Source: an uncultured Pseudomonadota bacterium (GTDB lineage Bacteria > Babelota > Babeliae > Babelales > JAUPTZ01). Taken from it: 64,000 nucleotides of DNA. The stretch spans positions 62,001 to 126,000 of the forward strand of contig CAYSBJ010000001.1 of assembly GCA_964429275.1 (NCBI GenBank), given 5' to 3'. Positions 1,637 to 43,937 of this stretch are shown here, in pieces. The notes under the pieces are model-generated. The model did no database searches and was not told the DNA's origin. It saw only the letters and a program-made list of their open reading frames with translations. Position 1 is the stretch's first letter. The number at the start of each line of letters is the position of its first letter. The position numbers and the translations under genes are program-made.

Positions 1637-2503
1637 TTAGAGAGAAGGCTCTGGTGACAACGGAAACAGTTCAACTTGCGGTGGGTGTGACTCACGAAAG
1701 GTTATGTTTTTGTGCAAAATATCGTGAGCAAAATAGCAATAACTATTGTATATCATATTCCCATCGGAGTGGTTAATAGTCGACGCGCCCCCTCCCTGCA
1801 TCATAGACGCATTCCATACAGCATTACAAAGAGCCCTCTCCTGTAGTTCACGCGTCGATAAAGTCGTTATCGCTTTAAGTTGTTTTTGTGCAAACAATTG
1901 AGGATTAAATGGCACACCAGCACCAAGCACACAAGCAATAAGATCGTTCTTTGCCTCTTGAGAGATATCAGGGCCACGGCCGTCCTCAAAGGGTAACCGC
2001 TGCAGATCTATAGGTAACGCAGCATCAACATCAGCGTAAGCCCGAGGAAGAGGAAGTGGTTCTGGCAACTGAAAATCATCGGCAAAATCAACCTTTTTCT
2101 TTTTTAGCGATGGCTTGCTCTTCGACATTAGCGTAGTTGCTGTGCTGACAGTAGTATTTGGCACTTCATTTGTTGGATTATCTGCTTGGCCAAGCTTCTC
2201 TTCCCCGCTTGTAGCAAAAGTACCCACACCACCACCAGCAGCCATAAGCAGGGCCAGAACATTCAGTTTCTTAAGGAGATGCTTCTTGTACGTTAACGCC
2301 GCTTTTTCTTCCGGAGTCTGGGCATTCGTAATGGCTTTGTTCAAGTAAGCCATGTAACCAGTAAAGCCAAGTGTTCCCAACAACCCTCCGACCAGAGAGT
2401 ACTTACTCACGTTATGGATGGTTTCACGCGAAATTGCGCCAACAGTACTCACCGGTACGACTGCTACTACGACCATCAACAAGCCAAAAAATCTATTTTT
2501 CAT
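1637..2503 (-). CDS. Exported protein with hydrophobic hairpin module; N-terminal paralog of 4291..8751
   Basis: Signal peptide, then SLVGGLLGTLGFTGYMAYLNKAI...AQTPEEKA...LKKLN shared with the 1486-aa ORF. Confidence 0.8.
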   Translation of the reverse strand: MKNRFFGLLMVVVAVVPVSTVGAISRETIHNVSKYSLVGGLLGTLGFTGYMAYLNKAITNAQTPEEKAALTYKKHLLKKLNVLALLMAAGGGVGTFATSGEEKLGQADNPTNEVPNTTVSTATTLMSKSKPSLKKKKVDFADDFQLPEPLPLPRAYADVDAALPIDLQRLPFEDGRGPDISQEAKNDLIACVLGAGVPFNPQLFAQKQLKAITTLSTRELQERALCNAVWNASMMQGGGASTINHSDGNMIYNSYCYFAHDILHKNITFRESHPPQVELFPLSPEPSL

Positions 2504-2581
2504 GCACTATACCCCAAATGATTAAGAATTTCAGTGTAATCAATCAGGCAAATAACGCAATAGAAAAGGCCTTTTTTTGCC

Positions 2582-4210
2582 TTAAAAAATCTCATCCACC
2601 AGCGTTTCCAGCTTCTGGACCGCGACCCCGGCCATCATATCGGCGTAGAAGGTTTCGTCATACTCACGGGTACGCACCACCACCGGCATTGGTACCGCAT
2701 GGCCCATAACAAGCGCCTGCTTTTTGGTATCCAATGACGCCAAAATCGCCCGCAGGCCAGAGCCGTTGCTTACACCAGTTAGTACCGCCTGAATGTCTTT
2801 ATCATCAGACAGCAAGGCTACAATCTTGGTTCCCACCTGCGAAATGATTTCCTGGTCAATACCAGAAGGCCGCTGGTCCACAATGAGGAGCGAGACGTAG
2901 TACTTACGCATTTCCCGCGCTATTACGCCGAAAATGGTTTGTTTTGCCGCTTGAGGATTAAGGAACTTGTGCGCCTCTTCAATGGTAATCATAAGTTTTT
3001 TCGGTTCATCCGCTGCATTCTGCGTGGCAAGAAATTTTTCTGTTTTGGCCACATAAATGTCATGAAGACGACGTGTAATGATATTTGAGATGAGCAGATA
3101 ACACAGAAGCGAGGTGTGGTTACCAAACTCCAGTACCACATGGATGCCACGATCAAGGTACTCAAACAGTGTGTCGATAACGGAAGAGCCTTGGCCCTCA
3201 CGGCGCAGAAATGGGAATTTTTCTAAGCGTTTTAACTTGCGATACAAAGCCGCCACCGATTCGGCGTGAGCACCGATTTCTTCGGCAAATTCTTTAGCAT
3301 TTGCTCCCTGCGACAAGAGCACCGAAAGCCACTGTTTTTTGTATTTGTTGGCAATCAAGTACGCAGCTTCAAGAGCAGTCGGATGCAGATTAAGCTCATC
3401 CTGCAATGGCATCACATCTTCCACGCGAATGTCATCAAAACTCAAAAACACTTCAACGTCTGGCGCACAGCCTCGGCGACGGGTTGACTCAGGGTCTAAA
3501 GAAAAGATGGCAACTTTATCGGGGAACAAAGTTTTGAGCCCTTTTACAAACACAATCCCTTCCCCTTCACGACGAGCCTGCACCCCGTACTCTGAATGCA
3601 TATCAAATACCAAATTCACCGCAGCCTGGCTCTTCACTAATCCTGCCAAGATAAGGCGTGTAATGAACGTTTTTCCCGTACCAGTCTTTCCAAAAATGCC
3701 GTTGGAACGCTCGGCAAAAAGGTTCAGATCAAGGCAAATAGGAGTGTCCATATCCAGCGGCTTGCCGATATTAAAATACTTCCGATGAGAGACTTCAGAA
3801 CCAAAGATATGGGCAACATCAGCCGCGCTTGCTTCGAGCACATCAGCAAAATGCGCCGGAATTGTTTTGACTGGCATGCGGGAATGAGTGGCGTGATCAA
3901 GCATCAGCATCGGGCGCAAAGAAACGGTCGCATACATATCACGCTTGCTGAGCATCGCATGCAGCAAAATCTCCTGCTTTGTCGGCGGAAATAAAAGAAT
4001 GTCTTGATTAGTAACCTGCAGCTGTATATCAGTAATGAGCGAAAAAAAACTGTAATGCAGACCACGCACACAGGCAAACTTGCCGGTCTTGATAGACTCC
4101 AGCGGGTAGTCAGCCGACAAACGCATGGTCAGGCCTTCCGTCAGCGAGCCACCAACAATGGTTCCGAGCTGACGAACAGCAGTGTCATTTTTCTTTTTTT
4201 GGGGCATCAT
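2582..4210 (-). CDS. HerA/DUF87-family P-loop ATPase
   Basis: HAS-barrel-like N-terminus, Walker A GKTGTGKT, VFDMHSEY, Walker B ITIEEAHKF, REMRKY and DQRPS. Confidence 0.85.
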   Translation of the reverse strand: MMPQKKKNDTAVRQLGTIVGGSLTEGLTMRLSADYPLESIKTGKFACVRGLHYSFFSLITDIQLQVTNQDILLFPPTKQEILLHAMLSKRDMYATVSLRPMLMLDHATHSRMPVKTIPAHFADVLEASAADVAHIFGSEVSHRKYFNIGKPLDMDTPICLDLNLFAERSNGIFGKTGTGKTFITRLILAGLVKSQAAVNLVFDMHSEYGVQARREGEGIVFVKGLKTLFPDKVAIFSLDPESTRRRGCAPDVEVFLSFDDIRVEDVMPLQDELNLHPTALEAAYLIANKYKKQWLSVLLSQGANAKEFAEEIGAHAESVAALYRKLKRLEKFPFLRREGQGSSVIDTLFEYLDRGIHVVLEFGNHTSLLCYLLISNIITRRLHDIYVAKTEKFLATQNAADEPKKLMITIEEAHKFLNPQAAKQTIFGVIAREMRKYYVSLLIVDQRPSGIDQEIISQVGTKIVALLSDDKDIQAVLTGVSNGSGLRAILASLDTKKQALVMGHAVPMPVVVRTREYDETFYADMMAGVAVQKLETLVDEIF

Positions 4211-4290
4211 ACAGCATACTTTCTTTACGCGGTTTTCGGGGTGATTAGTGATGCCCCATGGTACAAAGATATGGAAAAAAATAAAAGAGG

Positions 4291-7200
4291 CTAGGCTTCA
4301 GCCAAATCTCCAACAGCTTCAGCACTCATTTGGGCAACGTCCACAACAACCACGGAAATATTGTCCCCACTGCCGAGCCTGAAGGCTTCCGCAACTAAGA
4401 GCTTACTAATTTCTTGGCAATCAGCGCCATTGGCACGTTGCGCCTTAACAAACGCGGCAGCGGCCTCATTGGACATCTTGTCCCACAAGCCGTCGCATGC
4501 AAGTACGACAAAGTCAACTGGAGAATTAAGCAGATAAATATCCGGTTTAATGCCAATTACATAGTTCCGCGCCGAACCAGAACCTACTGGTTTGAAATGA
4601 GCGTCGCCAAAGCCACGGGAAACGGATAGGCCACTATCTCCAACGTAACAACGATTATCAAGTTGCACCTTGCCGCCCTGATCTATTATGCGCTTACGCT
4701 CTGCTTCGTCAGTCGGCTTATGGTCTTTTGTTCCAACAATAACATTTCCATCTGCATCCAACGCAATAGCACGGCAATCTCCAAGATTTATAAGACGCTT
4801 TTTGCCATCCACCGTTTGCAGGAAGAACACAGCAGGAGCCCCTCCGACCAGTGTCTCCCCATCAACCTTACCCTCTAATAAAAATGTGTCCAACTCTTTT
4901 ACAGCCTCACATATATTCTCATCAGTTATCGAACCACCAACCAGCTTTGCTTTCAAAAAATCACTAAATTGTCTAGAAACAGTTATTGCCAATTTATAGC
5001 CTCCGCTATGGCCGTCAATAACACCGAAAAGCTTATTGCCTTCAAAATCACGCACACATACTGCATCTTCCATTTCCGACCTCTTCCCTTGGATCTCGGT
5101 CGCGCCCGCATAAGAGGGCATGCTCACAAAGTTATTTGCCTGGTCAAAATTGTACTGTGCGGCCGTTGCTTCCCACAAGCGCTGCTGTTTCTCAACATAG
5201 AGCATCCGCATGCTATCACATTCTTGTATCGACATCTCTTCTAGAGAAGTAGCAAGCTCCCCAAATGTAACACCAGTGGGAGCAAAAGGCTCATCGGGGA
5301 CTACTTCTTGCCCCAAAAGACAACCGTACTTCAAAGTTCCGGAGAGACGGAAATATTCCTGAGGCGAAGAGGAGTAGGCGGCCGGCAGGAGAAGGGCAAA
5401 TCGCCCTTGCTCGTCCTTAAAAACAGGGGCAGAATTGAGGTCTGTTTCCACGAAAGAACTACCAACATGGTACCCATTACTATTAAAGAATTTCTGAAAA
5501 TTCATGTACACCAAAAACTCATCACGCAGCCTCGTCCTCTCATCCGTCAAGTTGTCCCGGCGCACAGCAACCCCTGGGGCTTCCATGGCGCCGCTTCCAT
5601 CCAAAGGCCCACCGGCAGCCGCTCGAGGCGAACGGGGTGCAGAAACAGAGACAGAAGCTACCACTGATGCTGCAGGTCCGGACAAATGAGATACTGACAC
5701 ACTAGGCTCAGTCGGAGCTGGAGCAGGCACGGGGGCAACAACAAATCTAGCCGCAGCCTCTCGAGGCTCCGGCACCGTCACGGCTTCATCATCAGCATCC
5801 ACACTTGCCGCGGCACGTGGTTTAAATTTGAATACGAGCGCCGTTGTGTCGTCTTCCACCTGTGCGCGGCTATTTCTTGCGCTTCTACGTACGAAGTCTA
5901 CAAGCGCTTGTCCAAGATTTTGCTTGTTAGATGCAGCCAACTCAAGCTCTCTTTTAATGTCCTCAAATGAAATAGCCGGCTCTCTCTCTACGCCACTAGA
6001 AGTACTTATATGATCCAAAACACCATCACATGCGACAATCAAATACTCAGCGTTATCAGGGATCTGAAAATCCCTCGTCTCTAGATCGTTTAATAAACCA
6101 TGTACAAAACCAGTATCCCTCTTTGTTCTACCACCCAAGGCCTTATGCTGGGATGGACCAACAACAACGCTTCCATCGCGACAAATAACAAAGCATCCTG
6201 AGTCGCCAGCATTCTGGACCGAGCACGTTCTGCCGTCAGCAGAAATTTGCGCAACGCATGCCATGCAGCCACCGCCAAAAAGTGAAATGCGCCCTATTTG
6301 GTCCGCCAAATCGCGTCCTGAGAATCGTCCAGCTTCAGCCGCATTATAGATATTTTTTTCTTGGTCGTATACGTTACGATAAGAAGCGCTCGCATCAAGC
6401 AATGACCTGCCCTGAGACACCTTTTCCATGAGAAACTTGGCCAAGTTTGCGCCGCCAGCTGCATGCTCAACAGGGCACCCATCAAACATAAGGTGAAAAG
6501 GCACTTGACTGTTTCCATCAAAAACACCTGCGCAAAGCCCGGAAGCAAAAGCTGCATCTTGGTCACATCTAGGCCCAAAACGCCCTTCATTGTAACCGGA
6601 TAGGTGTCCCATATACCAATCACCCAACGGCGTTCCAACACAAAGCGCCTGATCATTACGAGCACCCACAAATGTACAAATTTGAGCTACCCGATTAAAA
6701 CGGTCAACTGTCTCTAGTTTTGGTTCATAAATTTTGTATTCAAATTCTCCAGGCTGTCCCTTTTTTGGTGTAGAAAATCTGTATTCAAATACCCTAAGCT
6801 GTTCAAAATCCGGGTCAAGCGACCGCGTTAATGCCACATCAAATCCTTCCGCCCTCCCCAACAACGCAGGGCGATCAGTTGAGGCGGCTGATGCCGCCTC
6901 AGATTCACCGGCCGGCAGAGAAGTTCCCGCGCGAAGCTCCTTTAAGTAGCTCGCTACTTCTGGATGAGGTTGAGCGAGCTCTTCAGCAGTTTTGCCATCG
7001 TTATCTTTGAGCCCAATATCTGCTCCATGCGTGACTAGAAACTTAACCATAGGTAGATAGCCACTATGAGCTGCGCTCATAAGTGCTGTGCGATTTTTAT
7101 TGTCAACATCTTTTGCATTAATATCCACTCCACGAGCTAGCAAAATCTCAGCGTCTTGAACAAACTGAGCATAGACCCCCTCAACACCCATTTCCTCAGG

Positions 7201-8751
7201 CTTTGCCGTCAGGAGGTCAACAAGACCACTAAAAGTCTCTGGTACCGCAGAAACAGAGCCCGGAGTAAGCCCATTCAAATGCCGCATCAATCGATCTGCA
7301 GGCTTGGGGGTAGAAAGCGGCAATGCGCTAAGAATAGCATCACCGTAGGAATGGCTAAAGCGAGCATTCTCGCGCAAGAACCTGGTCATATTTTCATCCT
7401 CGAGCGCATAGTCAATAGCGGTCTTGCCTTGATCGTCTTTGATAAATGGAGACGCATTCATGATTAACAACTTCGGCACAGCAGGTGTGTTGCGATCACA
7501 AACCGCCATCGTCAGGGCAGTGCGACCACGATCGTTTTTATCATCAATAGAAACGCCCCGCTCAAGAAAGATATCCAGATCCTTGCGAAAACGATCAGCC
7601 AGGGTGTCCAGCGATGCCTCAGCACGAGCGCCATCCCCTTGGAAGAGCTGCGGAATCAAGACATTGAAACGCTCGACGAGCTGGAATAGCGTTGCCGGAG
7701 GGGTATCATAATCGAAAATACCAAACTCCTCCGCATATCTACCAAGATTTTCAGGCTGCCTCATGATGGCCTCTTCGGGCCGTGGTGTCGAAACTCTGTG
7801 CGGTGACGTGGAGCTGGGACTTGCCGAGGTTAATTCGGACGGCGACGCGGGCGACCGAGGCGAACCTGATGCAGAAGCAGGAAAAGGAGCAGCGGGCAAA
7901 ATAGGGGTCGTTAAACCTGAAGTACGAGGCGCCGCCGAAGGTATTGGAGTCCGCGCTGCAGCAAGCGAAGGGCTTATGCCAGAAGGAATTGAAGCCGAAG
8001 GTCGTGGCTCTGCACTGGAGGCTGATGAAGAAGATACAACAGGAATACTGGAGGGCTCAGTCATCCGCACGGCAGGCGCTTGTTGCGGAGCCGACGCGCT
8101 TGAGGATGCCGGAGTAGTTAGTTTCTTTGATGAAGGACGAGTTGACTTCGGATGCTTTAGAGCAACCGGTACTACTGGAAGAGCAGGTACTGAGGCATGA
8201 CCCGAAACCAATGGCTTCAACGCAGCGGGGGACGTAGTAGGTCTTGTTTGCGCAGAAACAACTGGCGATGCCGTTGGCGCTGTAGGGGCCGCTGGCTGAG
8301 GCGTGACTAAAGGCTCTACGGATGGTGCCGCATCGCCATCTTCTTCTCCATCCGAAAGGCTTTCTGCATCATCTTCCGAGGAAGTGCTTCCTCCAGGCGA
8401 AGCAATTAATTCATCATTTTTTGAATGAGTAACCAGCTGAGGCTTATCTTCACCGCGCCCAGCAAGAATACCAGCACCCCCACCGGCGGCAACAATCATG
8501 GCCACGATATTAAGTTTTTTGAGAAGGTTTTTTGTACGCAAAATCTCTGCTTTTTCTTCTGGGGTCTGAGCATTAGCAATAGCCTTATTCAGGTAAGCCA
8601 TGTAACCAGTAAAACCAAGTGTTCCCAGCAACCCTCCGACCAAAGAGAACTTACCAACGTTATACATTGTTTCACGGGGAAGTGCCGTTAGATTACCAGC
8701 TGGAAGACTCACTAAAATGGCCATCATCAGGCCAAAAAACCTTTTTTTCAT
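4291..8751 (-). CDS. Large exported protein: hairpin module, S/P/A linker, ankyrin repeats and two PP2C-type phosphatase domains
   Basis: Ankyrin motifs GRTALTMAV, GKTAIDYA and NRTALMSAAHSG; PP2C motifs VIDGHSG, NLGDCRA, DHKP, VSRGFGD, VLACDGLWD, GSGDNISV; a second divergent set VFDG/AGDSG/ACDGVLD/DDTT. Confidence 0.88.
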   Translation of the reverse strand: MKKRFFGLMMAILVSLPAGNLTALPRETMYNVGKFSLVGGLLGTLGFTGYMAYLNKAIANAQTPEEKAEILRTKNLLKKLNIVAMIVAAGGGAGILAGRGEDKPQLVTHSKNDELIASPGGSTSSEDDAESLSDGEEDGDAAPSVEPLVTPQPAAPTAPTASPVVSAQTRPTTSPAALKPLVSGHASVPALPVVPVALKHPKSTRPSSKKLTTPASSSASAPQQAPAVRMTEPSSIPVVSSSSASSAEPRPSASIPSGISPSLAAARTPIPSAAPRTSGLTTPILPAAPFPASASGSPRSPASPSELTSASPSSTSPHRVSTPRPEEAIMRQPENLGRYAEEFGIFDYDTPPATLFQLVERFNVLIPQLFQGDGARAEASLDTLADRFRKDLDIFLERGVSIDDKNDRGRTALTMAVCDRNTPAVPKLLIMNASPFIKDDQGKTAIDYALEDENMTRFLRENARFSHSYGDAILSALPLSTPKPADRLMRHLNGLTPGSVSAVPETFSGLVDLLTAKPEEMGVEGVYAQFVQDAEILLARGVDINAKDVDNKNRTALMSAAHSGYLPMVKFLVTHGADIGLKDNDGKTAEELAQPHPEVASYLKELRAGTSLPAGESEAASAASTDRPALLGRAEGFDVALTRSLDPDFEQLRVFEYRFSTPKKGQPGEFEYKIYEPKLETVDRFNRVAQICTFVGARNDQALCVGTPLGDWYMGHLSGYNEGRFGPRCDQDAAFASGLCAGVFDGNSQVPFHLMFDGCPVEHAAGGANLAKFLMEKVSQGRSLLDASASYRNVYDQEKNIYNAAEAGRFSGRDLADQIGRISLFGGGCMACVAQISADGRTCSVQNAGDSGCFVICRDGSVVVGPSQHKALGGRTKRDTGFVHGLLNDLETRDFQIPDNAEYLIVACDGVLDHISTSSGVEREPAISFEDIKRELELAASNKQNLGQALVDFVRRSARNSRAQVEDDTTALVFKFKPRAAASVDADDEAVTVPEPREAAARFVVAPVPAPAPTEPSVSVSHLSGPAASVVASVSVSAPRSPRAAAGGPLDGSGAMEAPGVAVRRDNLTDERTRLRDEFLVYMNFQKFFNSNGYHVGSSFVETDLNSAPVFKDEQGRFALLLPAAYSSSPQEYFRLSGTLKYGCLLGQEVVPDEPFAPTGVTFGELATSLEEMSIQECDSMRMLYVEKQQRLWEATAAQYNFDQANNFVSMPSYAGATEIQGKRSEMEDAVCVRDFEGNKLFGVIDGHSGGYKLAITVSRQFSDFLKAKLVGGSITDENICEAVKELDTFLLEGKVDGETLVGGAPAVFFLQTVDGKKRLINLGDCRAIALDADGNVIVGTKDHKPTDEAERKRIIDQGGKVQLDNRCYVGDSGLSVSRGFGDAHFKPVGSGSARNYVIGIKPDIYLLNSPVDFVVLACDGLWDKMSNEAAAAFVKAQRANGADCQEISKLLVAEAFRLGSGDNISVVVVDVAQMSAEAVGDLAEA

Positions 8752-12619: not shown

Positions 12620-13354
12620 ATGAAAGCTAATATTATTTTTTCCTTACTTATCACCTCCCTGCATGTCGTTACTATTACCGCAACCGATGATGTTGCCGTT
12701 ACCGCAAAAAAAGAGGGATGTAGCAATTTTTACGATGCCATCGTAGCCGCCGGTGTTTACGAACATGCGAAGAAAAAACCTGATGAGAACGGCTCACTAG
12801 CTCCATTCACCGTCTTTGCACCCACGAACGAAGCCTTCGCTGCCATAAAAGACATAGATCCTAAAAAAAAGAAGAAGATTATTATGCTTCATGTTGTACC
12901 GGGCAAAAAAATAGCGAAAACAGCTGATGATATGAAAGATGGAGTAACAACTGTCGGCGAACAGCTCCTCTTTGAAAAAGAAGGAAAAATAAGCCTTGAT
13001 GGTGCTCAAACTAAAGCATCCATAACAAAAGGCCCTATCGATGCAAACAATGGGGTTGTATACCTAATCGATACCGTTCTGTTACCCGCTGGTGAAACCA
13101 TAAAGAAACCAGAGCAAAAACCTGAACACACAGAAGAACAAAAAACAGAGCCTAAGCCTGAACACGCTGTAGAAACTAAAACAGAACCTAAGGCAAAAAC
13201 AAAAGCAGCGGCACCAATAATTACTGAGAATACTGCGCAAGCGCTGGTAACCAGTGTCACGCAACTTACTCAGTCAATTCAGCTACTTATTCATGTCATA
13301 CAGCAAGCGCAAGCAGCCAGCGAGTCCCCAGCACCCGCAGCTTCCATAAAATAA
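12620..13354 (+). CDS. Secreted fasciclin (FAS1) domain protein
   Basis: FTVFAPTNEAF, HVVPG and NGVVYLIDTVLLP; signal peptide; KPE-rich linker. Confidence 0.88.
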   Translation: MKANIIFSLLITSLHVVTITATDDVAVTAKKEGCSNFYDAIVAAGVYEHAKKKPDENGSLAPFTVFAPTNEAFAAIKDIDPKKKKKIIMLHVVPGKKIAKTADDMKDGVTTVGEQLLFEKEGKISLDGAQTKASITKGPIDANNGVVYLIDTVLLPAGETIKKPEQKPEHTEEQKTEPKPEHAVETKTEPKAKTKAAAPIITENTAQALVTSVTQLTQSIQLLIHVIQQAQAASESPAPAASIK

Positions 13355-13356: not shown

Positions 13357-14793
13357 TTACAACTCACGGTACGCAAGCAAACGCGCATGCAAAAAGAGAT
13401 AGAGCCGTCGCTCCTGTTTATTACGAACTTCACCAGAGAAAAGCCGTCCAATTAATGGTAATTTTCGTATCCAAGGGATTCCGGTATCTTCCTCTGTTTG
13501 TCCGGCCTGCGTTAGCCCACCAAGCAATACCGTTTGCCCATCATCAAGCACCACTACATTGTTAACCCGAGAGGTAACGATGGTGGGATAGGTCGTACTA
13601 GTACTCGTAGGGGAAAGATGCGAATTTTCCACAAAAACTTCGAGCCGTACCCGCTTACCATCGGCTAGAACTTGTGGCTTAATCTGCACCTTCACCCCCA
13701 CATCTTTATAATTGGCAGAGCGCACTGTGCGTGTGCGCCCTTCCACAGCATCTTCAGTAAAAATCTCAATCGGCACGCTTTGCCCTTCATGCAATATCGC
13801 AAGCTTGCCCGAGCAACTCATAATCTGTGGCGCAAGCAAGGTGCGCACCCAATTTCGACTTTCAGCAGCATTCAAAACCACATTGAGTGCATTCATCGAA
13901 GTAGCACTATTGAAAAGAAATGGTAACTCAAGGGAATTCCCCGTGCTTTGCACTGTTTTGAATAGCCATGGTAAAGTCGTAGGTGGCGTACCCCCAACAG
14001 AAGAAAACGGCATATGCCCCCCACCATATGAAAACTGCACGTTAAGCCCCAAGCGTGTCATAAAATCTGCCCGCGCAATAACAATCCGAGCCTCAATACG
14101 AACTTGTGGCAACGGCACATCAATTGCTTTTACCATACGCTTAAACAACCTCACCTGCTCAGCAGTCCCTTGCACAATCACCCGATGCCCATCATCATCA
14201 ATGAAAAAATATTGGCTCCGTGATGCGCCAATATATTGTCGTATGCACTGCTGCCACATAGCTTCTAAGCGCAACTTCAGTTGCTCCGTCCAAGAAATCC
14301 ACGTCACCACAACCGCATCATGAACTGGCGGTTCAAAAATAGACAAAAGTATCTGACGTGCTCGCTTTATTAAAACGGTACGGGGCGCCACATGCAACAC
14401 CCGATTAACAATCAAAATCCCCAGCGGCGGCGAATGACTCGTAAGTAACGTATGCAACACACTTCCAATAGGCTCTCCCCGCACCACCAGAAGCGGCACA
14501 TTGCCGCCCACTGCATCATCCACCACCACCGAGAGCTGTGCTCGCTCAGCAAGAAGCTCAACTGCTTCCCTCAGCGGCGTCGCTTGCAATGACAATTCAA
14601 CTGATACCCGCAAAGCCGGATGGTTGAAGCAGTCATTTAAAAAATCATCAATACGGCGGTTGCTTTGCTCTCCCTCCTCCTTTCCTTTCGCGACCACAAT
14701 CGGCTCCAATGGCTGAATCATGAGGGGAGCCGATTGTGGCTCTGCAACCAGCTCAATACAGCTGGCAAAAAGAAACACCATATAAAAAATCAT
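13357..14793 (-). CDS. Secretin (PilQ/GspD family)
   Basis: QVRIEARIV, YKDVGVKVQIKPQV, DGQTVLLGGL, GIPWIRKLPLIGRLFS; ATG 14793 overlaps the upstream stop (ATGA). Confidence 0.88.
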   Translation of the reverse strand: MIFYMVFLFASCIELVAEPQSAPLMIQPLEPIVVAKGKEEGEQSNRRIDDFLNDCFNHPALRVSVELSLQATPLREAVELLAERAQLSVVVDDAVGGNVPLLVVRGEPIGSVLHTLLTSHSPPLGILIVNRVLHVAPRTVLIKRARQILLSIFEPPVHDAVVVTWISWTEQLKLRLEAMWQQCIRQYIGASRSQYFFIDDDGHRVIVQGTAEQVRLFKRMVKAIDVPLPQVRIEARIVIARADFMTRLGLNVQFSYGGGHMPFSSVGGTPPTTLPWLFKTVQSTGNSLELPFLFNSATSMNALNVVLNAAESRNWVRTLLAPQIMSCSGKLAILHEGQSVPIEIFTEDAVEGRTRTVRSANYKDVGVKVQIKPQVLADGKRVRLEVFVENSHLSPTSTSTTYPTIVTSRVNNVVVLDDGQTVLLGGLTQAGQTEEDTGIPWIRKLPLIGRLFSGEVRNKQERRLYLFLHARLLAYREL

Positions 14794-15272
14794 ACGACAA
14801 TCTTCCAAGAATACCGCCCTGAAAAACCGCATGGCTTAAGACTATATAAAGAAATGGGGATAGCGTGCAGCGAACAAAGCCAGGCACAATGAATTATTTT
14901 TCCTTTACTGCCTATTACCGTAATAGTGTGGCCGGCAGCCCGTACGTGACATTGTGCCTGCTGCGCGCACACTTCAATTTTTTGGCGCCAGTTAATAACG
15001 GGCACCGATTTTGGCGACAACATATCAGCAGAAGCCAAAACCAATACGCCACATGATGGCCATTGGTACCAGCACCATGCACTCAAAAGAAGGCACAAGC
15101 TTACAAAAAGCCACAGCACGCGGCGCACTAAGAATAAGTAGGGAAAATAGAAATAGATCATACGGCATGCACCAGTTCCTGCCGCACACCCATGTCGTTG
15201 ATAGCGAAACAATAGAATAAAATTAAGGCCGCTGTAAAGCACTTTCCTTAAAAAGTGCCGCCAGTGCGTCAT
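14790..15272 (-). CDS. Hypothetical membrane protein translationally coupled to the secretin (start uncertain)
   Basis: One hydrophobic segment; its stop overlaps the secretin start; no recognisable motif. Confidence 0.45.
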   Translation of the reverse strand: MTHWRHFLRKVLYSGLNFILLFRYQRHGCAAGTGACRMIYFYFPYLFLVRRVLWLFVSLCLLLSAWCWYQWPSCGVLVLASADMLSPKSVPVINWRQKIEVCAQQAQCHVRAAGHTITVIGSKGKIIHCAWLCSLHAIPISLYSLKPCGFSGRYSWKIVV

Positions 15273-20110: not shown

Positions 20111-20112
20111 AA

Positions 20113-28566: not shown

Positions 28567-31500
28567 TTAAAATGGCCAACCGATGGGCTCTTGTTGAACC
28601 GATTCGAGGCCGCTTTTATACTGGGCCCAAAGCTCCGAACCCAGCATCTTCTCATTGATAAGCCCGCTATTTTTCTCTATGTAAGAACAAAGGTCAAACC
28701 TTCGGCTGCTAAGCAAGCTCTTAAAGAGATCTATTACTGCACCTTTTAAGTCTTCCGGCACATTAAGTTTGCCCCGCTTAAAGAGCAATGCGGCAAAATA
28801 TTTATTCTCTTTTGCAAGAGCATAAGCAAGAGCCCCCTTGCCAGCGCGGTCCGTACTATCAAGATCCGCTCCTCTCTTAAGAAGGCTGTCTACTATATCG
28901 ACTTCATCATTAATAATGGCAAGCATGAGGGCTGTTTTGCCATCATTTCCTTGATGATTTATGTCTAGACCCCCTACTTCACCAAGCGCCAATAGATAAT
29001 TGGAGAGCTTTTTGGCCCAATCCCTTTCAGGACTGCAAAGAGCACACATCAATGTGTTATATCCTTGTTTGTCGACAACCTTCAAATTCAGCTTAAATTT
29101 CTCTACAAAAAGCCTTACTGCTTGATCAACCGAGCTAAAACCGCGGAGATCCCTCAAGCCTATGATTTTTTTTAAGCACGCCAATTGTAACAAAGGAGCC
29201 TGATTCAAATCGAGTTGCGAGACTTCCGCAAAATGTTCAAGATACGAGTCGTCGAGAGACCAGGAGCTTAACAACTCTAGAAATTTTTTGCCTAAACGTC
29301 CCTTATCACTTGGCGCACAGCAAAAACCTAATTCACGAAGACCCGATGCCAACGCAAAGTGGCGATTCGAAACCGCCGCCACAAAAGCCTCCGATACTTC
29401 TGGACTTTTTAAATTCACGTGCTTACCAAGCCCATGCACAGCAAGATAAGCATAGACCAAAGGTTTTTTTGCCTCATCTAAAAGTTTTTGACCCCCAGCC
29501 GCAATATTCGCACCGTGGAGATGAAAAAATTCTACTGTATAAACATCACCACTGTTCACTGCATCAGCCAAAAATAGATTACTATACTCACACAACGCTT
29601 CTTTTTTTGTTCGCTCATTATAGCCCCTGGTCAAATGAGCTAGAGCTGTCTCCAAATTCATGGATGCACGGCGCTGAATAAACGATCGTATAGAAGCCTG
29701 ATCATCGGCACTCAGTGATCTAATTTCTTGCAATTCCTCCTGCAACACACTTGCTGTCGATTGTGCATTGGAAGGCACTTCAACGGGCGCTTCAATGGAA
29801 CCACTTCTTGAATCTGCAATTATTTCTAAGGTCTTATCAGATTTTACCAACGTATCTAAAGCCCCCGCAGCGCGAAGAATATTAACTAGTTCCTTATCCT
29901 TTTTTTGCACAGCAAGCGAAAGAGCTGTGTCACCATTTTTTGCCTGAGAATTAGGATTGGCTCCTCTCGCAAGAAGACTCCTTACGTACTCAATTTTGCC
30001 ATTTTTTACGGCCAGCATAAGCGCAGAAAAACCTGCATTGTCCTGACGATTGACATTTATCCGAGCCAAAGCGCTATCGCTGCGCCCATAAGATTCCGGC
30101 AGGCCCTGAAATAAAGATTTCTCCTCATCCGAAAGGATAATATCACACACCTCTTGCGCACACTGTCTTTCCTTGGATTCGTCTGCGAGAGCGCACATCA
30201 ACATATTCCGACCGCCACCATCCACAGCATCAAAATCGAGTCTGAAATCCAATGCAAACGTGGCTAACAAATTTCGCGTAGCGCCAGCCGCAATATAATC
30301 GCAGTTCCATAGCCCTGTTTTTCTGTAAAGTACTTTACAACATTCAAGCTGCTTTGCAGGCGTATTCAAGTGAAGTAGACACATATCGAAAAAGCCATTT
30401 AGGGAGTTATTTTTATCCATAAAAAGAGCAGGCGTCCAGTCCGGCAAAAGAAGCAAAAACTTCTCAAACAGAGCCTCTTGGTCAGCATTTTTAGGATCAA
30501 AACCCAAGTCACACAAACCTCGTGCTAAAACCAGATCACCTTTGTGCATCGCCTTCAAAAAAAGCTGCGCCATTTGCGGAGCAGCGGGATCTACATACTC
30601 ACGAAGTCCATTCTCAGCAAGATAGATATAAACAGCAGGATCTACTGCCTTCTTCAAAAGTTCTTTGCCCCCAGCTTTAATATCAACGCCCAACTCAGTA
30701 TGCAAATACCGCACCAGCCCTTCATCACCCCATTGCACCGCATCAGATAAAAATAAGCTGCCATAATGCGCTTTTGCTCGCGCCTCAAAACCTGCGACTG
30801 CCTTATCTAGTAAATTTTGTGCATAAGTAAAATTACTATCAAACCCGACAATAAATTGACGTATTCTAGCCTCAAGTGAAGGGGCAAGCGGTTTAATCTC
30901 CTGTAACTCTTTTACTCTGCCTGATTCTACCTGAGGCGCCGACTGAGGCAAAATTGATTGGAATTCCGGCTTTGCCATTACTTCTAGGAGCTCAACTGCT
31001 GACGCTGATTCCTGCCCAACAGACTCATTAGCACGCATCAACTCATGCACAGGATTTTCAACAACTGCAGTGTCATCGGCCCTTTCACCCACAGCGGTAG
31101 GGACATCTTCACTGCCATCAGTCACAGCCAACCCCGTCTCAGCCGTAACCTGAGCATCCAGCGGCTCACTCTCCTGGCGTTGTTCTTCCCTGGCTGGTTC
31201 TACCTGAGGCGCCGGCTGAAGCAAAATTGATGGGAATTCCGGCTTTGCCATTACTTCTAGGAGCTCAACTGCGGACGCTGATTCCTGCCCAACAGACTCA
31301 TTAGCACCCATCGACTCATGCACAGGATTTTCAACAACTGCAGTATCATCGGCCCTTTCACCCACAGCGGTAGGGACATCTTCACTGCCACCAGCGAGAA
31401 AGGCAAGTAACGCAGTCATCAAGACCGAAGCCCCGCCTGCTTTGAGCAAAGTGTTTACCCGTTTTTTTGCCAATTTATAGGCATTTTTCCGTTCTTCTGA

Positions 31501-31710
31501 GGTGTTTTCAGCCAAATCTATTCGAGCTTTTTTAAGCTGATTATAGGCAAGCAGCAGAGCAACGCCCACACCACCAGCTGCTATCGCACCACCGGTCAGG
31601 ACGTGCTTTCGATATCCAGAGGAAGTGCTCTTTGAAACCGGGCCAGCAAAACTTTGCATTGGCAGCAAAAGCACCACAAACAAAAAGAACGAAGAAAAAC
31701 GCTTTTGCAT
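28567..31710 (-). CDS. Exported ankyrin-repeat protein with N-terminal hydrophobic hairpin and internal duplications
   Basis: GFSALMLAV, GDTALSLAV, GKTALMLAI; signal peptide plus two hydrophobic helices. Confidence 0.87.
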   Translation of the reverse strand: MQKRFSSFFLFVVLLLPMQSFAGPVSKSTSSGYRKHVLTGGAIAAGGVGVALLLAYNQLKKARIDLAENTSEERKNAYKLAKKRVNTLLKAGGASVLMTALLAFLAGGSEDVPTAVGERADDTAVVENPVHESMGANESVGQESASAVELLEVMAKPEFPSILLQPAPQVEPAREEQRQESEPLDAQVTAETGLAVTDGSEDVPTAVGERADDTAVVENPVHELMRANESVGQESASAVELLEVMAKPEFQSILPQSAPQVESGRVKELQEIKPLAPSLEARIRQFIVGFDSNFTYAQNLLDKAVAGFEARAKAHYGSLFLSDAVQWGDEGLVRYLHTELGVDIKAGGKELLKKAVDPAVYIYLAENGLREYVDPAAPQMAQLFLKAMHKGDLVLARGLCDLGFDPKNADQEALFEKFLLLLPDWTPALFMDKNNSLNGFFDMCLLHLNTPAKQLECCKVLYRKTGLWNCDYIAAGATRNLLATFALDFRLDFDAVDGGGRNMLMCALADESKERQCAQEVCDIILSDEEKSLFQGLPESYGRSDSALARINVNRQDNAGFSALMLAVKNGKIEYVRSLLARGANPNSQAKNGDTALSLAVQKKDKELVNILRAAGALDTLVKSDKTLEIIADSRSGSIEAPVEVPSNAQSTASVLQEELQEIRSLSADDQASIRSFIQRRASMNLETALAHLTRGYNERTKKEALCEYSNLFLADAVNSGDVYTVEFFHLHGANIAAGGQKLLDEAKKPLVYAYLAVHGLGKHVNLKSPEVSEAFVAAVSNRHFALASGLRELGFCCAPSDKGRLGKKFLELLSSWSLDDSYLEHFAEVSQLDLNQAPLLQLACLKKIIGLRDLRGFSSVDQAVRLFVEKFKLNLKVVDKQGYNTLMCALCSPERDWAKKLSNYLLALGEVGGLDINHQGNDGKTALMLAIINDEVDIVDSLLKRGADLDSTDRAGKGALAYALAKENKYFAALLFKRGKLNVPEDLKGAVIDLFKSLLSSRRFDLCSYIEKNSGLINEKMLGSELWAQYKSGLESVQQEPIGWPF
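30925..31390. repeat. Intragenic 193-nt direct repeat (30925..31117 and 31198..31390)
   Basis: Near-identical copies offset by 273 nt (in frame), encoding GSEDVPTAVGERADD...APQVE twice. Confidence 0.95.
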
Positions 31711-35166: not shown

Positions 35167-36502
35167 AAGAGCTACTACGCTTCTTATATTGATGCCAAAT
35201 TCCTACTGCTCCTAAGGAAGAAAAAACCCCCAATCCTACCAACAGGCGCCGTACTTTTTTCTTTTCCTTTTCCAACTCAACAAGGGCAGCTCTATCCTGA
35301 GTGCCTGCTTTCATTTTTTCTAATGAGCGCAAACGCAACAATAAAAGAACAGCCAGCAAACCGCCAACAGCAGTTCCCGTCCCCAAAAGTGGTAATAAGA
35401 TCGCCAGACTTCCGCCCTCAGTCGCTGTAATATTACTAATGTGTTCTCTCTGCGACTGATCCCGACCGGTCACAATAGCGGGGATAAGCTCCTTGTCGGC
35501 TGATTTTTTTGATTGCGTCTCTGCTTGCACAAATGCGGGTGCGTCTAATTCTTCGAGCGCCATACGTTGGCGCTCTTCAGATTGCTTCTGTTCCTCCTTA
35601 AGTGCAATCTGGCGCGCCGCCTCCACCGCTTCAGCTTCTCGTGCTATGCGAGCTTTCTCAGCTAATTCCAAAGCCGCTATTTCGCCAGCTATTCTCTTTG
35701 ACTCTGCCAATGCAGCTTGCTCACGAGCCTCCCTCTCTCGCGACTCTGCTTCTAATGTCTCAACTTTACTTTTAATCATTTTGGGAAGCTCTTTATTTGG
35801 ATCAAACTCATCACTAAACGACAAACTTGAAACAAGCTTCCATAAACGTATTTTTTCCGCATGAGAGCGGTTCTCATGTCCTGGCGAGACTAAAGTTTGG
35901 AGCGCTTTAATCGGCAGGTGAACTCCATTAGCCTCCTTCTCTTCATACACTGCATTTAACTTTCGCATATCATCAAGCAACCTCTCAGGGCACTCCTCTC
36001 TTGAGCCGTAATAATACCAGGTACTTACTGTCGCAGGTTCCTTCTTAAGCCAGTTGGTTAGAAATTGAAGCTCCTCAGGGGACGCATAATCACCTGAAAG
36101 AGCCTTGCGAGCAATAACAATCGGAGGCAAACGTTCCGGAACCTCATACTTCAACCAAGATAATAAAAAAATCCGCAAAAAAGCGAAGAAATAGTGCTTA
36201 TTAGCAGCAGCCGCCGCCAGCGACTTTTGTTCAATCTTCACGCACAAACTTTTAATATCAAGCTCCCCGGATAACAAAGCAGGACGCAGCTTTTCTTTAG
36301 CAATTGCAAGGTATTTATCATATCCATGCGCAGAAAAATCAGTATCCTCGAGAGCATCAATAAAATTTGCTACCGCCGCCCACGCATTCTCCTCCGAAGA
36401 AAAAGATTTAGTCTCGGCTAGCCCTTGCACTGCAGCAATCACTAATGAATTAGATAACAATGCGAAACTACACACTAAAAAATACATCGTCCTACCTTTC
36501 AT
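35165..36502 (-). CDS. Exported coiled-coil protein with C-terminal hydrophobic hairpin
   Basis: Signal peptide; E/A/R coiled coil; two hydrophobic helices separated by a basic coil at the C-terminus. Confidence 0.75.
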   Translation of the reverse strand: MKGRTMYFLVCSFALLSNSLVIAAVQGLAETKSFSSEENAWAAVANFIDALEDTDFSAHGYDKYLAIAKEKLRPALLSGELDIKSLCVKIEQKSLAAAAANKHYFFAFLRIFLLSWLKYEVPERLPPIVIARKALSGDYASPEELQFLTNWLKKEPATVSTWYYYGSREECPERLLDDMRKLNAVYEEKEANGVHLPIKALQTLVSPGHENRSHAEKIRLWKLVSSLSFSDEFDPNKELPKMIKSKVETLEAESREREAREQAALAESKRIAGEIAALELAEKARIAREAEAVEAARQIALKEEQKQSEERQRMALEELDAPAFVQAETQSKKSADKELIPAIVTGRDQSQREHISNITATEGGSLAILLPLLGTGTAVGGLLAVLLLLRLRSLEKMKAGTQDRAALVELEKEKKKVRRLLVGLGVFSSLGAVGIWHQYKKRSSS

Positions 36503-36660
36503 AAAAGTATGGTCTCGTCAGTCTAAAAGCCTGGCTGCCCCAGTTCAAGCGTCTAAAATAAAACCAATACAAATGCAGTATTGACAGACAAATTCCCCAA
36601 TAAAGTATGCTGCTCCCTCACTTAAGCAATTCTGTTCGCCCGCAAGAAAGGACCGCTGGC

Positions 36661-38478: not shown

Positions 38479-38487
38479 GAGTTTGTT

Positions 38488-41400: not shown

Positions 41401-42060
41401 GGAATTTTTGATCATAGCATTATCACTGACGGAAGCTCGGGAGATTGCTCTCTGCTTGCTGTCTCAAAGCCCGCCAACCAATTTCCTACAAGCAAATACA
41501 TTATCAAGGTTGGCCCAAATGAAAAAGGAGTTATCCGCGGCGGTGGTAACGTCTATTTCGTAGATAAAGATGCTTCTATGGTTTTGGATGGTAGTGGTGC
41601 CGTAACAGCCTCGCCACATACCGTAAGCATTGGAAGCACTGCTGAAACACTAAGTTTCACCCTTTCAAATAGCGGGACCTACGCTCCCTTAGCGCCAAGC
41701 ATTGCGATCAAAGGACGATTTTACAACATTCCGACTATTACCACTTACAGCCTCTATGGCCGCGGGATAGTACAAAGTAGTGATTCAATTCCGTATATTT
41801 TTGCCGGGCCAGCCGAGGAGTTTTTTTCCGCCATAACACTCAATAACTATAGCGATTATAGCGAGCGCTACGTTCCAATGGGCATTATGAATACAATACC
41901 AATGCTGACCTATATAAATAGCGGCACAATTATACGAACCCCGCTCATCACTAGTCGGCTTAAAGACGGCACAAGCGATCAAGCAGCTGGACTGGGTTAC
42001 CTTCGAGGGGCAAAACAAATTTCAGGCGCCCCAAGCTTATTCTATTTACCAACCGAATAG
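38488..42060 (+). CDS. Large secreted protein: T/A-rich helical N-half, beta-rich C-domain shared with 54531..59870
   Basis: AGGAG RBS, signal peptide, shared PDG..NSDL, PNFG, LVLEP, VGIEADY and GGALQIGN blocks. Confidence 0.8.
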   Translation: MNRTLHFLFITCLTITGGLMASDPYQSYVDDLAAKVTLVNNLASEFGAPLVTDATNTKTAVTTSHTTITAFIDTFGGSAPSELTTIQASLATLITICDDYIIIGTLHNSLATALYTLATIDISQSASTNASIISTGVSTLTTVIGSYATTHALGLGGEGGIQNSAQWNLFLTDYARAIIAFNASSPAGIAQRLQTFATHNITLESNLAAVPSPSDDTVIDYDTSYTGAQATVTATANTVISDLAAVTTQLALLTASNQATQDDQIDYIADSSIVLQSKVDQFNSHTTAIKNKAALGVSDIALRVLQRQLLFDTVTYTQKQTLIDSITTNLAGNSTAAANVQSAVSDVGALLTITPPSFNCGPVTPSSSPTDALEAMQAEVDAQVTTYLNNLTTTIRNLFVSPPNQDTLDAALQTLTPAVYIQMTANVMLSWLTQRVSDLGANSSISLADATVAKYVAEWNALRTVLASSNAAGNTLISSAALARIATAQSNTNYASLFNSLPGSEAGTAFTLRVNALLKLPSGSIPTIKTQGINEFQRLAVQVIVAIQNGSLTAPATTTTNASATTPSPLTVPGSPSTTISDTNIMTSQLDDGDEILITGSGTLGTRLRDPIFASSISNKLSAAVKIFMNQSARIGLGTANISAHPGNTLNVLGGSGASESTSVQIIPDGNCFLDVNSDLIIGGSKPIIPTPNFGTDVHQITFYSPVPRTITVTANTTWDLSDFGSTGSGYIDYGKQIVFAGQIRLVLEPGAKIRFPHVDPSNIAQTVVLYFDDQASIVFQGDPLVIGKPWTDSGIAGTDCKRSKILGMGQIWLNKTSKMIINKPALVGIEADYTTPKTDITLSLQRNAQVLIGTSSTAGGALQIGNMYDGGSSANPEAADEDPYFPNSPVHSEFSPHITSVDFTLTINGDQPLFQIGRQGFFGIAAGIINKDGAPSSTSQAPNGVSGVPHSAWQLQRLYNVGNITLNITQGIFDHSIITDGSSGDCSLLAVSKPANQFPTSKYIIKVGPNEKGVIRGGGNVYFVDKDASMVLDGSGAVTASPHTVSIGSTAETLSFTLSNSGTYAPLAPSIAIKGRFYNIPTITTYSLYGRGIVQSSDSIPYIFAGPAEEFFSAITLNNYSDYSERYVPMGIMNTIPMLTYINSGTIIRTPLITSRLKDGTSDQAAGLGYLRGAKQISGAPSLFYLPTE

Positions 42061-42062
42061 TA

Positions 42063-42647: not shown

Positions 42648-42725
42648 GATTTTACCCCTGTATATATAAACCCCGTCCTAGTTTTAGTATGACAAAGCAC
42701 ATGAAGTAAAAACAAGCGGTTACAG

Positions 42726-42760: not shown

Positions 42761-42776
42761 ATTTTTTAAGTCGGAA

Positions 42777-43295
42777 TTATTTCAGTTCGTGCCAGGGCAC
42801 CAAAGCATTTCCGGTTACTTTATGGTTTGCATAAAGCTCCGCTGCCAAACCACCAAGCACTATTCCCAAGCACACGTAACTTTTCTTTTTATAACTAGCA
42901 AGCTTGGCTTCCTCTTGTGCCAACTCCGCTTCTAAAGCGTCAAGAACGCTGTCTGACTGAGTCTCGTCGCTTGTCGTAGCATTGCCTGCATCAGTAGTAG
43001 ATTCATCAGTTTCAGCAACGTTTTGCGATTCTGCTTCTGCTACTTCTGCCGCCGCAATCTCGTTCTTCAATTCTACAATGCGCCGTTGAGTTGACTGTAT
43101 TTTTGACGCAACAAAAATTTGATACGCAAAAGCAAGTCCAGCTGTTCCAAAACCAGTCCACCAAACTTTGTTATAAGTATTACGTATAGCCTGGTCCTCG
43201 GGAGTAGGCGACAGGTGACTCTCTGCCTTAACAGATGAACTAATTCCAGCAAACGCCGCAACAAATGTCACAGCCATCAAAATCATTTTTTTCAT
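42777..43295 (-). CDS. Exported TM-coiled coil-TM protein; paralog of 43392..43937
   Basis: KVWWTG...ELK...E.K.AS..K...LYAN...TG shared. Confidence 0.78.
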   Translation of the reverse strand: MKKMILMAVTFVAAFAGISSSVKAESHLSPTPEDQAIRNTYNKVWWTGFGTAGLAFAYQIFVASKIQSTQRRIVELKNEIAAAEVAEAESQNVAETDESTTDAGNATTSDETQSDSVLDALEAELAQEEAKLASYKKKSYVCLGIVLGGLAAELYANHKVTGNALVPWHELK

Positions 43296-43366
43296 ATATA
43301 CCCTTTAAAGGAAAACTAAAGAAACTATTGGTTTCAGGCTCGTTTTTTAGTTACCAGCCAAAAATT

Positions 43367-43401
43367 AGCGTAGCAAAATATATCCAATACGTCAAAGAGG
43401 C
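43367..43401 (-). promoter_or_regulatory. Duplicated sigma70 promoter, copy 1
   Basis: TTGACG-17 nt-TACGCT; 43377..43401 identical to 44011..44035. Confidence 0.75.
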
Positions 43402-43937
43402 TCGCTGTGCCATTTTCTGTCTTCACCCAGTACCATCCGGTAACTTTCCCCCAATTTGAGCGCATCAGCATCATCCCGCCAATTAGAATTAGAAGCCTCG
43501 CCTGTAGCAGCATAATTGGCATACAGGGCAAGGATAAGCCCCACGTAGGCTGCAGCCATGCCGCCGAAAGCGCGTTTCCGCAAAGACGCAAACTTTTCCT
43601 TTTCCTGCTTAAGCGCAAAGCCTAGCGCCAAAAGATGCCCCTCTTTTTGAGTTGCCTTTGCGATGGTAATATCAGCCTTCAACTCAAGCATCCGAGCGTA
43701 AATAGACCACATTTTATTGAGCATAATCGTAGAATACACAAGCCCACCAAACGAAATAATCTCACCACCCCACCACATTTTTGAACAGCGCCCTGGTTTT
43801 TTAGAGGCCCATTCTGCGTACCTGGCTGGCACCGCACTCGGGCTCACGCCATGTACCACGCCAGCAGGGGCCGCAATGGCCACGCAAAGAGAAATCCCAA
43901 AAACTATACTTTTTACACTTAATCTTCTCATACACAA
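43392..43937 (-). CDS. Exported TM-coiled coil-TM protein; paralog of 42777..43295
   Basis: KMWWGG...ELK...EKFASLRK...LYANYAATG. Confidence 0.75.
   Translation of the reverse strand: MCMRRLSVKSIVFGISLCVAIAAPAGVVHGVSPSAVPARYAEWASKKPGRCSKMWWGGEIISFGGLVYSTIMLNKMWSIYARMLELKADITIAKATQKEGHLLALGFALKQEKEKFASLRKRAFGGMAAAYVGLILALYANYAATGEASNSNWRDDADALKLGESYRMVLGEDRKWHSEPL

Follow-up and report, generated by a model that had tools for sequence, protein, structure and literature searches.

We have analysed a stretch of 64,000 nucleotides (hereafter the window) from an uncultured bacterium of the Dependentiae (Babelota in the GTDB taxonomy), in which a preliminary description had pointed out seven open reading frames (ORFs) as one dispersed family of exported proteins, whose hydrophobic hairpin was proposed to insert into host membranes and to carry different payloads. 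The main finding is that the observation is real, although what the seven ORFs represent is a class of architecture that includes two or more true families and not a single family of seven: a Sec-type signal peptide is combined with two Gly-rich hydrophobic helices joined by a long basic connector, and this layout recurs in many genes of the genome. We give an even chance to the reading that these are exported proteins built on a lineage-specific membrane leader, in which the hairpin would be the constant anchor or leader and the payloads would be fast-evolving and probably directed at the host.

Coordinates are given as window positions, the window corresponding to G000:C1:62001-126000, where G000 denotes this genome (1.21 Mb in 8 contigs, 98% complete); signal peptides and helices were called by Kyte-Doolittle and charge heuristics, and cleavage sites by eye. 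The seven ORFs are open frames, all on the minus strand, and all begin with a basic and then hydrophobic stretch having small residues at -3/-1, which both the heuristic and inspection by eye accept as a signal peptide. The layout claimed for all of them, i.e., a signal peptide, two uncharged Gly-rich helices and a charged connector, was found in six, whose helices are hydrophobic and rich in Gly, Ala, Ser and Thr and whose connector is basic and helical. P0001 (1637..2503, -; 288 amino acids, aa) carries the signal peptide and hairpin of the group called family A below (residues 35-100, 2204..2401, -, comprising helix 1, basic connector and helix 2) and then an orphan C-terminal domain; no other cluster member was found for it among 5.8 billion clusters in the length range searched, longer and shorter classes lying outside that search. 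P0002 (4291..8751, -; 1486 aa) has a family A signal peptide and hairpin (residues 35-98, 8458..8649, -), a linker of ~250 aa rich in Pro, Ser and Ala (residues ~100-330), ankyrin repeats with the best stretch at residues 534-605 (6937..7152, -; PF12796, E 1.6e-17), a SpoIIE/PP2C-like domain at residues 829-976 (5824..6267, -; PF07228, E 9.6e-7) and a PP2C domain at residues 1216-1465 (4357..5106, -; PF00481, E 1.6e-35, profile positions 4-255 of 255). P0003 (28567..31710, -; 1047 aa) joins a family A signal peptide and hairpin (residues 36-109, 31384..31605, -) to a twice-repeated acidic linker and two ankyrin-containing halves; because the linker is duplicated almost exactly (~107-165 and ~198-255) and the two halves resemble each other, this gene appears to have grown by internal duplication.

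P0004 (35165..36502, -; 445 aa) consists of a signal peptide, an orphan domain, a coiled-coil-like stretch rich in Glu, Ala and Arg, and a C-terminal hairpin (residues 363-439, 35186..35416, -) followed by a basic tail, and no relative of it was found in G000 or in 5 related genomes. P0006 (42777..43295, -; 172 aa) comprises a signal peptide, helix 1, a long helical stalk with an acidic disordered tip, and helix 2; P0007 (43392..43937, -; 181 aa) belongs with it in family B, and its signal peptide is more typical when read from the Met at residue 3. The positions and payloads of the module thus agree with the preliminary description: it is N-terminal in P0001, which has no known domain, in P0002 with ankyrin, SpoIIE-like and PP2C domains and in P0003 with two ankyrin regions, C-terminal in P0004, and nearly the whole protein in P0006 and P0007. 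For the five ORFs other than P0002 and P0003, searches of Pfam and NCBIfam gave nothing above threshold, and only P0006 showed a match below it, to a TolC-like coiled coil. The remaining ORF, P0005 (42063..42647, -; 194 aa), had already been called the weakest member, and this is correct: it has no uncharged hydrophobic run past the signal peptide, its two amphipathic "helices" carry Arg, Asp and Lys, and the heuristic missed it. We therefore drop it or keep it merely as a doubtful member.

The seven proteins do not align into one family in phmmer or hhalign searches, an outcome that the preliminary description itself had named as speaking against its claim, and what stands of that claim is a family of three and a family of two. 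P0001 and P0002 are strongly related (E about 1e-40) and both are weakly linked to P0003 (E 3e-5 to 7e-3), P0006 and P0007 are linked to each other (E 1e-7 to 1e-10), and P0004 and P0005 match none of the others in phmmer; the family A profile in hhalign gave probabilities of 6.8% for P0004, 9.5% for P0007, 0.2% for P0006 and 0.6% for P0005. Family A, comprising P0001, P0002, P0003 and paralogues elsewhere in G000 and in two congeners, gives a convincing alignment, with conserved positions in the helices and connector alike; in the connector, a Ser/Thr-x-Glu-x-Lys turn is followed on the return helix by an aromatic residue, Ala-Lys/Arg and Phe. The close relative G004 has four intact copies of family B, and these align well with P0006 and P0007. 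The seven proteins thus share an architecture, and homology is shown only within the three and within the two.

Structure predictions, which had been suggested for the hairpins, gave a long antiparallel helical hairpin for both families. The AlphaFold2 model from the family A alignment has a mean predicted local distance difference test score (pLDDT) of 65 (about 80 in the connector) and a predicted template modelling score of 0.43, and in the 87-residue construct of P0003 it consists of a helix at 12-45, running from helix 1 through the connector's first half, a three-residue turn and a return helix at 49-84 that continues into helix 2. The family B model has helices at 32-96 and 110-161 and a disordered acidic tip, with a mean pLDDT of 71.5 and about 90 in the stalk. 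Judging from these models, what had been called a coil is better described as an antiparallel helical stalk, which would project from the membrane-embedded open end of the hairpin. Comparison of the family B model with the PDB by Foldseek gave no match at E<=0.001 and returned only generic coiled coils and helical hairpins, residues 1-115 of P0003 had no usable match in the ESM Atlas, and a two-copy complex prediction for the family A hairpin gave no answer (score 0.00), which counts neither way.

We also examined how often the layout itself occurs in the genome. The census filter required a signal-peptide-like start, two neighbouring uncharged runs separated by a connector of 12-75 residues with >=30% charged residues, and <=2 strongly hydrophobic runs in the whole protein, and was applied to the 921 non-overlapping ORF-genes of G000 and to 608 shadow ORFs of the same genome as background. 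It gave 41 matches in G000, with the module N-terminal in 27, C-terminal in 8 and internal in 6, i.e., 35 terminal matches per 921 ORF-genes, and no shadow ORF passed (0/608), so the layout is beyond chance. On inspection by eye, 6 of the 35 terminal matches look false (one Cys-rich protein, and others with weak helices); on the other side, the filter misses P0006, whose connector has about 75 residues, and at least four cases known from a stricter first filter or from the profile (C2_326585, C3_19891, C3_84455 and C3_81169). A fair estimate is 30-35 genes, about 4% of the genes of G000. These genes are scattered among housekeeping genes (groES/groEL, H+-pyrophosphatase, ATP synthase, uvrC), often as tandem pairs or triplets.

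The census bears on the reading that there is no shared module at all, the likeness (a signal peptide and any two hydrophobic stretches) having arisen by convergence in composition, without a function in common, within a proteome that abounds in exported orphans. A signal-peptide-like start is present in 315 of the 921 ORF-genes by our heuristic, so that chance combinations are conceivable; the links among the seven reach only three plus two, for none of the other four does the hhalign probability against family A reach 10%, and the false-looking matches in the census point the same way. Against it stand the empty shadow set, the same long hairpin predicted for families A and B, and the recurrence across unrelated sequence groups of the Gly-rich helices, an aromatic and basic cap and the net-positive helical connector. 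It is also hard to reconcile with the counts in other genomes. In G003, of the same genus, a 400-kb sample of 319 genes (116 signal-peptide-like) contained 15 terminal matches, a number biased upward because contigs other than C6 were known beforehand from family A matches; contig C6, chosen through AtpA, had 5 of 95. In 400-kb samples from two genomes outside its family, there were 4 terminal matches among 413 genes in G045 and none among 367 in G023, despite equally many signal peptides (187 and 148, respectively), and the four of G045 are small proteins of 93-255 aa that are not Gly-rich. We thus regard the absence of any shared module as very improbable. The counts of 35/921 and 15/319 against 4/413 and 0/367 indicate, on the basis of just two outside genomes, that the architecture has expanded within this genus and does not characterise the phylum.

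The distribution of family A, for which a profile search of the genome and its relatives had been proposed, is narrow. Among 261 genomes of the phylum, strong matches were found only in G000 (10, one of them partial), G003 (14) and G004 (8), all of one genus; none was found in two more genomes of the genus (83-84% complete) or in one of the family (64% complete), and in seven genomes elsewhere in the phylum the matches were weak and partial, reaching helix 1 only. In a set of 1.84 billion representative proteins, the profile gave 20 matches at E<=1e-3, of which 18 have the module at residues ~22-106 and two are spurious internal matches in a phage tape-measure protein and a TPR-like protein. 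Ankyrin repeats were detected in 9 of the 18 non-window family A matches that were scanned, in one case with a score under the curated cut-off. We found no description of such a leader in Dependentiae in the literature searched, which left supplementary tables aside and mostly did not cover subscription journals.

The charge distribution around the hairpin is informative on its topology. In 29 curated cases, the connector has a median length of 29 residues (range 14-73), of which 30-53% are charged and 9 (median) are Lys/Arg. Its net charge is positive in 27 of the 29 and has a median of +6, compared with +1 (Wilcoxon p 8.5e-6) for the 15 residues that follow helix 2, a stretch that is acidic in several family A members. 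According to the positive-inside rule, positively charged loops of membrane proteins are kept in the cytoplasm, and a net-positive connector should thus lie on the cytoplasmic face of the bacterial inner membrane. With a cleaved signal peptide, this would place the mature N-terminus and all that lies past helix 2 outside the cytoplasm. Helix 2 with its preceding basic patch looks like an internal signal-anchor. The inference of insertion into a host membrane finds no support here: the basic connector argues for the bacterium's own inner membrane with a payload that is periplasmic or beyond, an outcome that the preliminary description had itself listed as contradicting it.

Host-membrane insertion is nevertheless a rival reading, in which the whole protein would leave the cell through Sec and then through a secretin or in vesicles. 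The marginally hydrophobic Gly-rich helices would not be integrated into the bacterial inner membrane, and the hairpin would insert in a host or vacuole membrane in the manner of the chlamydial Inc proteins, with the payload shown to the host cytosol. As in Inc proteins, a hydrophobic hairpin of two helices lies close to one terminus of proteins that evolve fast and are otherwise unrelated, the paralogues are numerous and scattered with small clusters, some members are rich in coiled coil, and the bacterium obligately depends on a host. The helices here have 16% Gly against 5% in the polytopic-protein helices of G000 and are less hydrophobic than those inner-membrane helices, a contrast that is partly built in because the reference set was picked with a stricter threshold. 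Reportedly, membrane effectors of the secretion systems of types III and IV (T3SS and T4SS) sit just below the threshold for inner-membrane targeting (PMC6110835), and vesicle budding occurs in a cultivated member of the phylum (PMC6561590). The payloads are eukaryote-like (ankyrin, PP2C) and fast-evolving, and effectors would have to begin through Sec, as no T3SS or T4SS marker was found.

The connector and the leader are where the resemblance ends. The available part of the Inc literature gives a loop of mean 8 residues (range 3-22) without Lys, Arg, Asp or Glu, a bilobed domain of 40-60 residues, an N-terminal T3SS signal and restriction to Chlamydiae (PMC3048545), whereas the connector here is several times longer, highly charged and net positive, and the leader is Sec-type in a genome with no match to FHIPEP; of the three testable defining Inc features, two are lacking, the short uncharged loop and the T3SS signal. 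A connector with ~9 Lys/Arg is the kind of loop retained in the cytoplasm during Sec/YidC insertion; it would need help to cross a host membrane, with insertion from the lumenal side the payload would stay in the lumen, and no known pathway carries two-helix membrane proteins across the outer membrane. We consider insertion in a host membrane unlikely, since the connector is long and highly basic and no route is known. The bolder form of the idea, a Sec-dependent counterpart of Inc proteins in which a Gly-zipper hairpin cassette exports ankyrin, phosphatase and orphan effectors via secretin or vesicles and plants them in the host membrane, is to our judgement equally improbable; if true, it would be a new principle of effector delivery and display.

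The preliminary description had taken the leaders to be Sec-type and not T3SS signals, in agreement with the Sec-like N-termini and with the gene content of G000: neither FHIPEP (T3SS) nor VirB4 (T4SS) had a match in this 98% complete genome, and three secretins (one, PilQ/GspD-like, at 13357..14832, -), BamA and two ATPases of the type II secretion system/type IV pilus (T2SS/T4P) class are present. Any route to the host must thus start with Sec and continue by a secretin pathway, vesicles or proteolytic release. Two gspD copies have been described as core to the phylum (Yeoh et al., PMC4776705), and vesicles bud from the cultivated member mentioned above, Chromulinavorax. For Chromulinavorax, the available part of the same paper gives signal peptides in 44% of coding sequences and in 78% of ankyrin proteins, and Sec-signal ankyrin proteins were thus already known in Dependentiae (PMC6561590).

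The rate of change of the different parts was compared between G000 and its closest relative, G004, in which an H+-pyrophosphatase (H+-PPase) fragment is 98% identical. In four orthologous family A pairs, the hairpin is 70-91% identical, the signal peptide 48-73%, the payload 41-71% and the linker 17-34%, so that the module is the conserved part ahead of variable payloads, which supports the preliminary interpretation. P0003 has the ortholog P0011 in G004, and the G004 orthologs of P0005 and P0007 are 77% and 79% identical, respectively, with extra copies of P0007. In G003, whose AtpA is 92% identical to that of G000, queries with P0004, P0005 and P0007 found nothing, and the family A members are only about 20-30% identical. 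By these comparisons, the genes are fast-evolving and variable in copy number, and the hairpin is their most constrained part. The syntenic site in G004 beside the H+-PPase gene (L083-L087, G004:C114:2158-5541) has four family B genes and a 5'-truncated copy against two genes here, and this difference is a recent tandem gain or loss. In the G004 counterpart of P0001/P0002 (L027/L033, G004:C26:5444-5751), a frame change and a TGA lie within the hairpin connector, representing either a pseudogene or an assembly error in this 66% complete genome.

The tie to eukaryote-like payloads, which had been part of the original claim, is also supported. Ankyrin repeats are present in 9 of the 40 hairpin proteins that were scanned, PP2C accompanies them in one, and the other 31 match no Pfam family; a known envelope domain was found in none. 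P0002 and P0003 match ankyrin Pfam families (PF12796/PF00023) above the curated cut-off and seven further hairpin proteins at E<=0.001, the weak match of L050 reaching 29.9 bits for the whole protein with no single stretch passing. G000 has 14 ankyrin ORFs in total, of which 9 carry the signal peptide and hairpin; among the other five, one has a signal peptide and a single Gly-rich helix, one a single N-terminal Gly-rich helix without signal peptide, one only a signal peptide and two neither element. The leader is thus the usual front end of the ankyrin proteins of this organism. For P0002, the PP2C match is full-length and above the Pfam cut-off, and the motifs RSEMED, DGHSGG, DGLWD and GDNIS, which we take to be the PP2C metal-site motifs, are visible and apparently intact.

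These two sets of data bear on the reading that the proteins stay in the bacterial envelope, anchored in the inner membrane, with the ankyrin and orphan domains serving as periplasmic scaffolds or regulators of envelope or uptake machines that never meet the host. The charge asymmetry and the Sec signal give exactly that location, and the long Pro-rich tethers, as in P0002, suit spanning the periplasm. RARP-1 of Rickettsia offers a precedent, being an ankyrin protein with a Sec signal that was expected to be secreted and can yet be purely periplasmic according to the part of the report available (bioRxiv 10.1101/2022.02.23.481736). On the other side, a PP2C phosphatase would, on general grounds, have no obvious substrate in a periplasm lacking kinases and ATP, and the scanned proteins contain nothing of a known envelope type. 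Housekeeping envelope factors are not expected to show the payload identities given above while H+-PPase is 98% identical, nor to become undetectable in a congener with such a similar AtpA, nor to vary in copy number between close relatives. We therefore hold residence in the envelope to be possible, if rather unlikely; should it be correct, it would be a warning not to take each ankyrin protein with a Sec signal for an effector.

The apparently intact PP2C motifs, the bias to ankyrin proteins, the lack of envelope-type domains and the rate of turnover favour an action of the payloads on the host over one in the periplasm. In the lineage-specific leader reading, which we prefer, the signal peptide would take the N-terminus across the bacterial inner membrane, helix 1 would return to the cytoplasm, and the basic stalk would be kept on the cytoplasmic face in accordance with the positive-inside rule. 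Helix 2, acting as a signal-anchor with the Lys/Arg patch before it, would then restart export, so that the remainder, in which a long tether rich in Pro and Ser often leads to the ankyrin, PP2C or orphan domains, would come to lie outside the cytoplasm; in the C-terminal versions, the hairpin would anchor a domain already exported. Release of the payload to the host by secretins, vesicles or proteolysis is in our view more likely than its staying tethered in the envelope. A putative signal peptidase site after helix 2, judged by eye from small residues at -3/-1, is seen in P0001, P0003, L002 and L003 and not in P0002 or L001.

Several points weigh against the leader reading and should be taken together. 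As a test of a two-pass anchor, the charge bias in 27 of 29 cases is clear, but helix 1 is only marginally hydrophobic (median summed Hessa-scale value of +4.5 against +1.5 in polytopic-protein helices, with a reference set subject to the selection mentioned above), and it may therefore not integrate alone. The C-terminal modules end in Lys/Arg tails, as P0004 does, and the same rule would put their C-terminus in the cytoplasm too, which a simple hairpin topology does not explain. Signal peptides, helices and census all rest on our own heuristics and not on a dedicated predictor, and the 29 cases of the charge count are the 35 terminal hits minus the 6 dropped by eye. RARP-1 keeps the envelope-resident reading alive. 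Release of the payload by a rhomboid protease was considered and found no candidate, since PF01694 had no match in G000, other intramembrane proteases not having been searched for. Moreover, we know of no route that brings an inner-membrane-anchored protein to the host.

Comparison with further known systems shows partial likeness in each case. Transmembrane effectors of T3SS and T4SS (Krampen et al., 2018; Malmsheimer et al., 2024) similarly have one or two moderately hydrophobic helices; for Legionella, an inner-membrane intermediate before secretion has been proposed in the part of the paper available (PMC11602083), and under this two-step model, an inner-membrane stage and delivery to the host need not exclude each other. 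Those effectors differ in having no Sec signal peptide and, so far as described there, in needing dedicated signals, chaperones and machines, whose markers FHIPEP and VirB4 are those without a match in G000. Wolbachia WD0766 joins ankyrin repeats to two C-terminal transmembrane domains, and its repeat number and transmembrane part vary by strain (PMC3287509, available part); compared by this description only, it belongs to another phylum, its pair is C-terminal, and the description mentions neither a signal peptide nor a basic connector. RARP-1 is likewise an exported ankyrin protein, from an obligate intracellular bacterium; it had been taken for an effector and is found in the periplasm. The available description mentions no membrane hairpin, and RARP-1 is retained throughout its genus, in contrast to the fast turnover of the proteins described here.

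Gly-zipper two-helix domains, presumably exemplified in Pfam by the Rickettsia 17 kDa antigen/SlyB type, are also Sec-exported with a pair of Gly-rich membrane helices. They have a tight turn and a lipoprotein signal, whereas the proteins here have a long basic connector and no lipobox. Gly-zipper Pfam families matched none of 19 family A modules at E<=5 and none of the seven window proteins at E<=0.01, and the module had no match to any other Pfam family either.

The question addressed by these findings is how Dependentiae, having no T3SS or T4SS marker in the present genome, deliver signal-peptide-bearing ankyrin proteins to the host. A leader that occurs in one genus only, on 9 of the 14 ankyrin proteins and on some 25 orphans of this genome, offers a way of testing how effectors are delivered in a phylum for which no injection system has been found. 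Should the leader serve as a sorting or anchoring signal, it would single out the host-interaction repertoire of the lineage and be a short, transplantable element with a destination open to direct test.

Concerning the genome, G000 matches the traits of its phylum in its small size, ankyrin proteins, T2SS/T4P parts, several secretins and many signal-peptide-like starts. The GC content is ~46% in the three large contigs, and contigs C4-C7 (4-13 kb), with GC of 60-70% against 46% elsewhere, look foreign and are probably contaminants of the bin. DNA matches to the window were found in three sequencing runs, from freshwater and wastewater metagenomes, with no RNA run among those listed.

Several neighbouring genes of the window may be mentioned. 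An ATPase of the HerA/FtsK type (2582-4210, -) lies on the same strand between P0002 and P0001, the closest family A paralogues; it matches Pfam DUF87 (E 2e-30), and its NCBIfam HerA/CedD matches are weak and far below the cut-offs. It was considered as a partner of the leader, for which there is no evidence. F1 ATP synthase genes are present at 18578-21172 (-): the alpha subunit was assigned by eye and has 92% identity to that of G003, Pfam identifies delta/OSCP, and a further ORF is b-like. A carbonic anhydrase of eukaryotic type (PF00194, E 1.9e-26) is encoded at 61433-62350 (+), and a fasciclin-domain protein with a signal peptide (PF02469, E 3.2e-20) at 12620-13354 (+); both domains are more commonly met in eukaryotes or on the surface of cells. 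The window is also rich in large orphan proteins: five large ORFs (623, 1190, 831, 776 and 1790 aa) at 36607-42060 (+), 49385-54221 (-) and 54498-59870 (+) have no Pfam or NCBIfam family. Two adjacent orphan ORFs of 358 and 357 aa (24847-25923 and 26111-27184, -), neither with a Pfam family and one with Ser/Asp-rich repeats, are identical in the first ~30 residues and then diverge completely.

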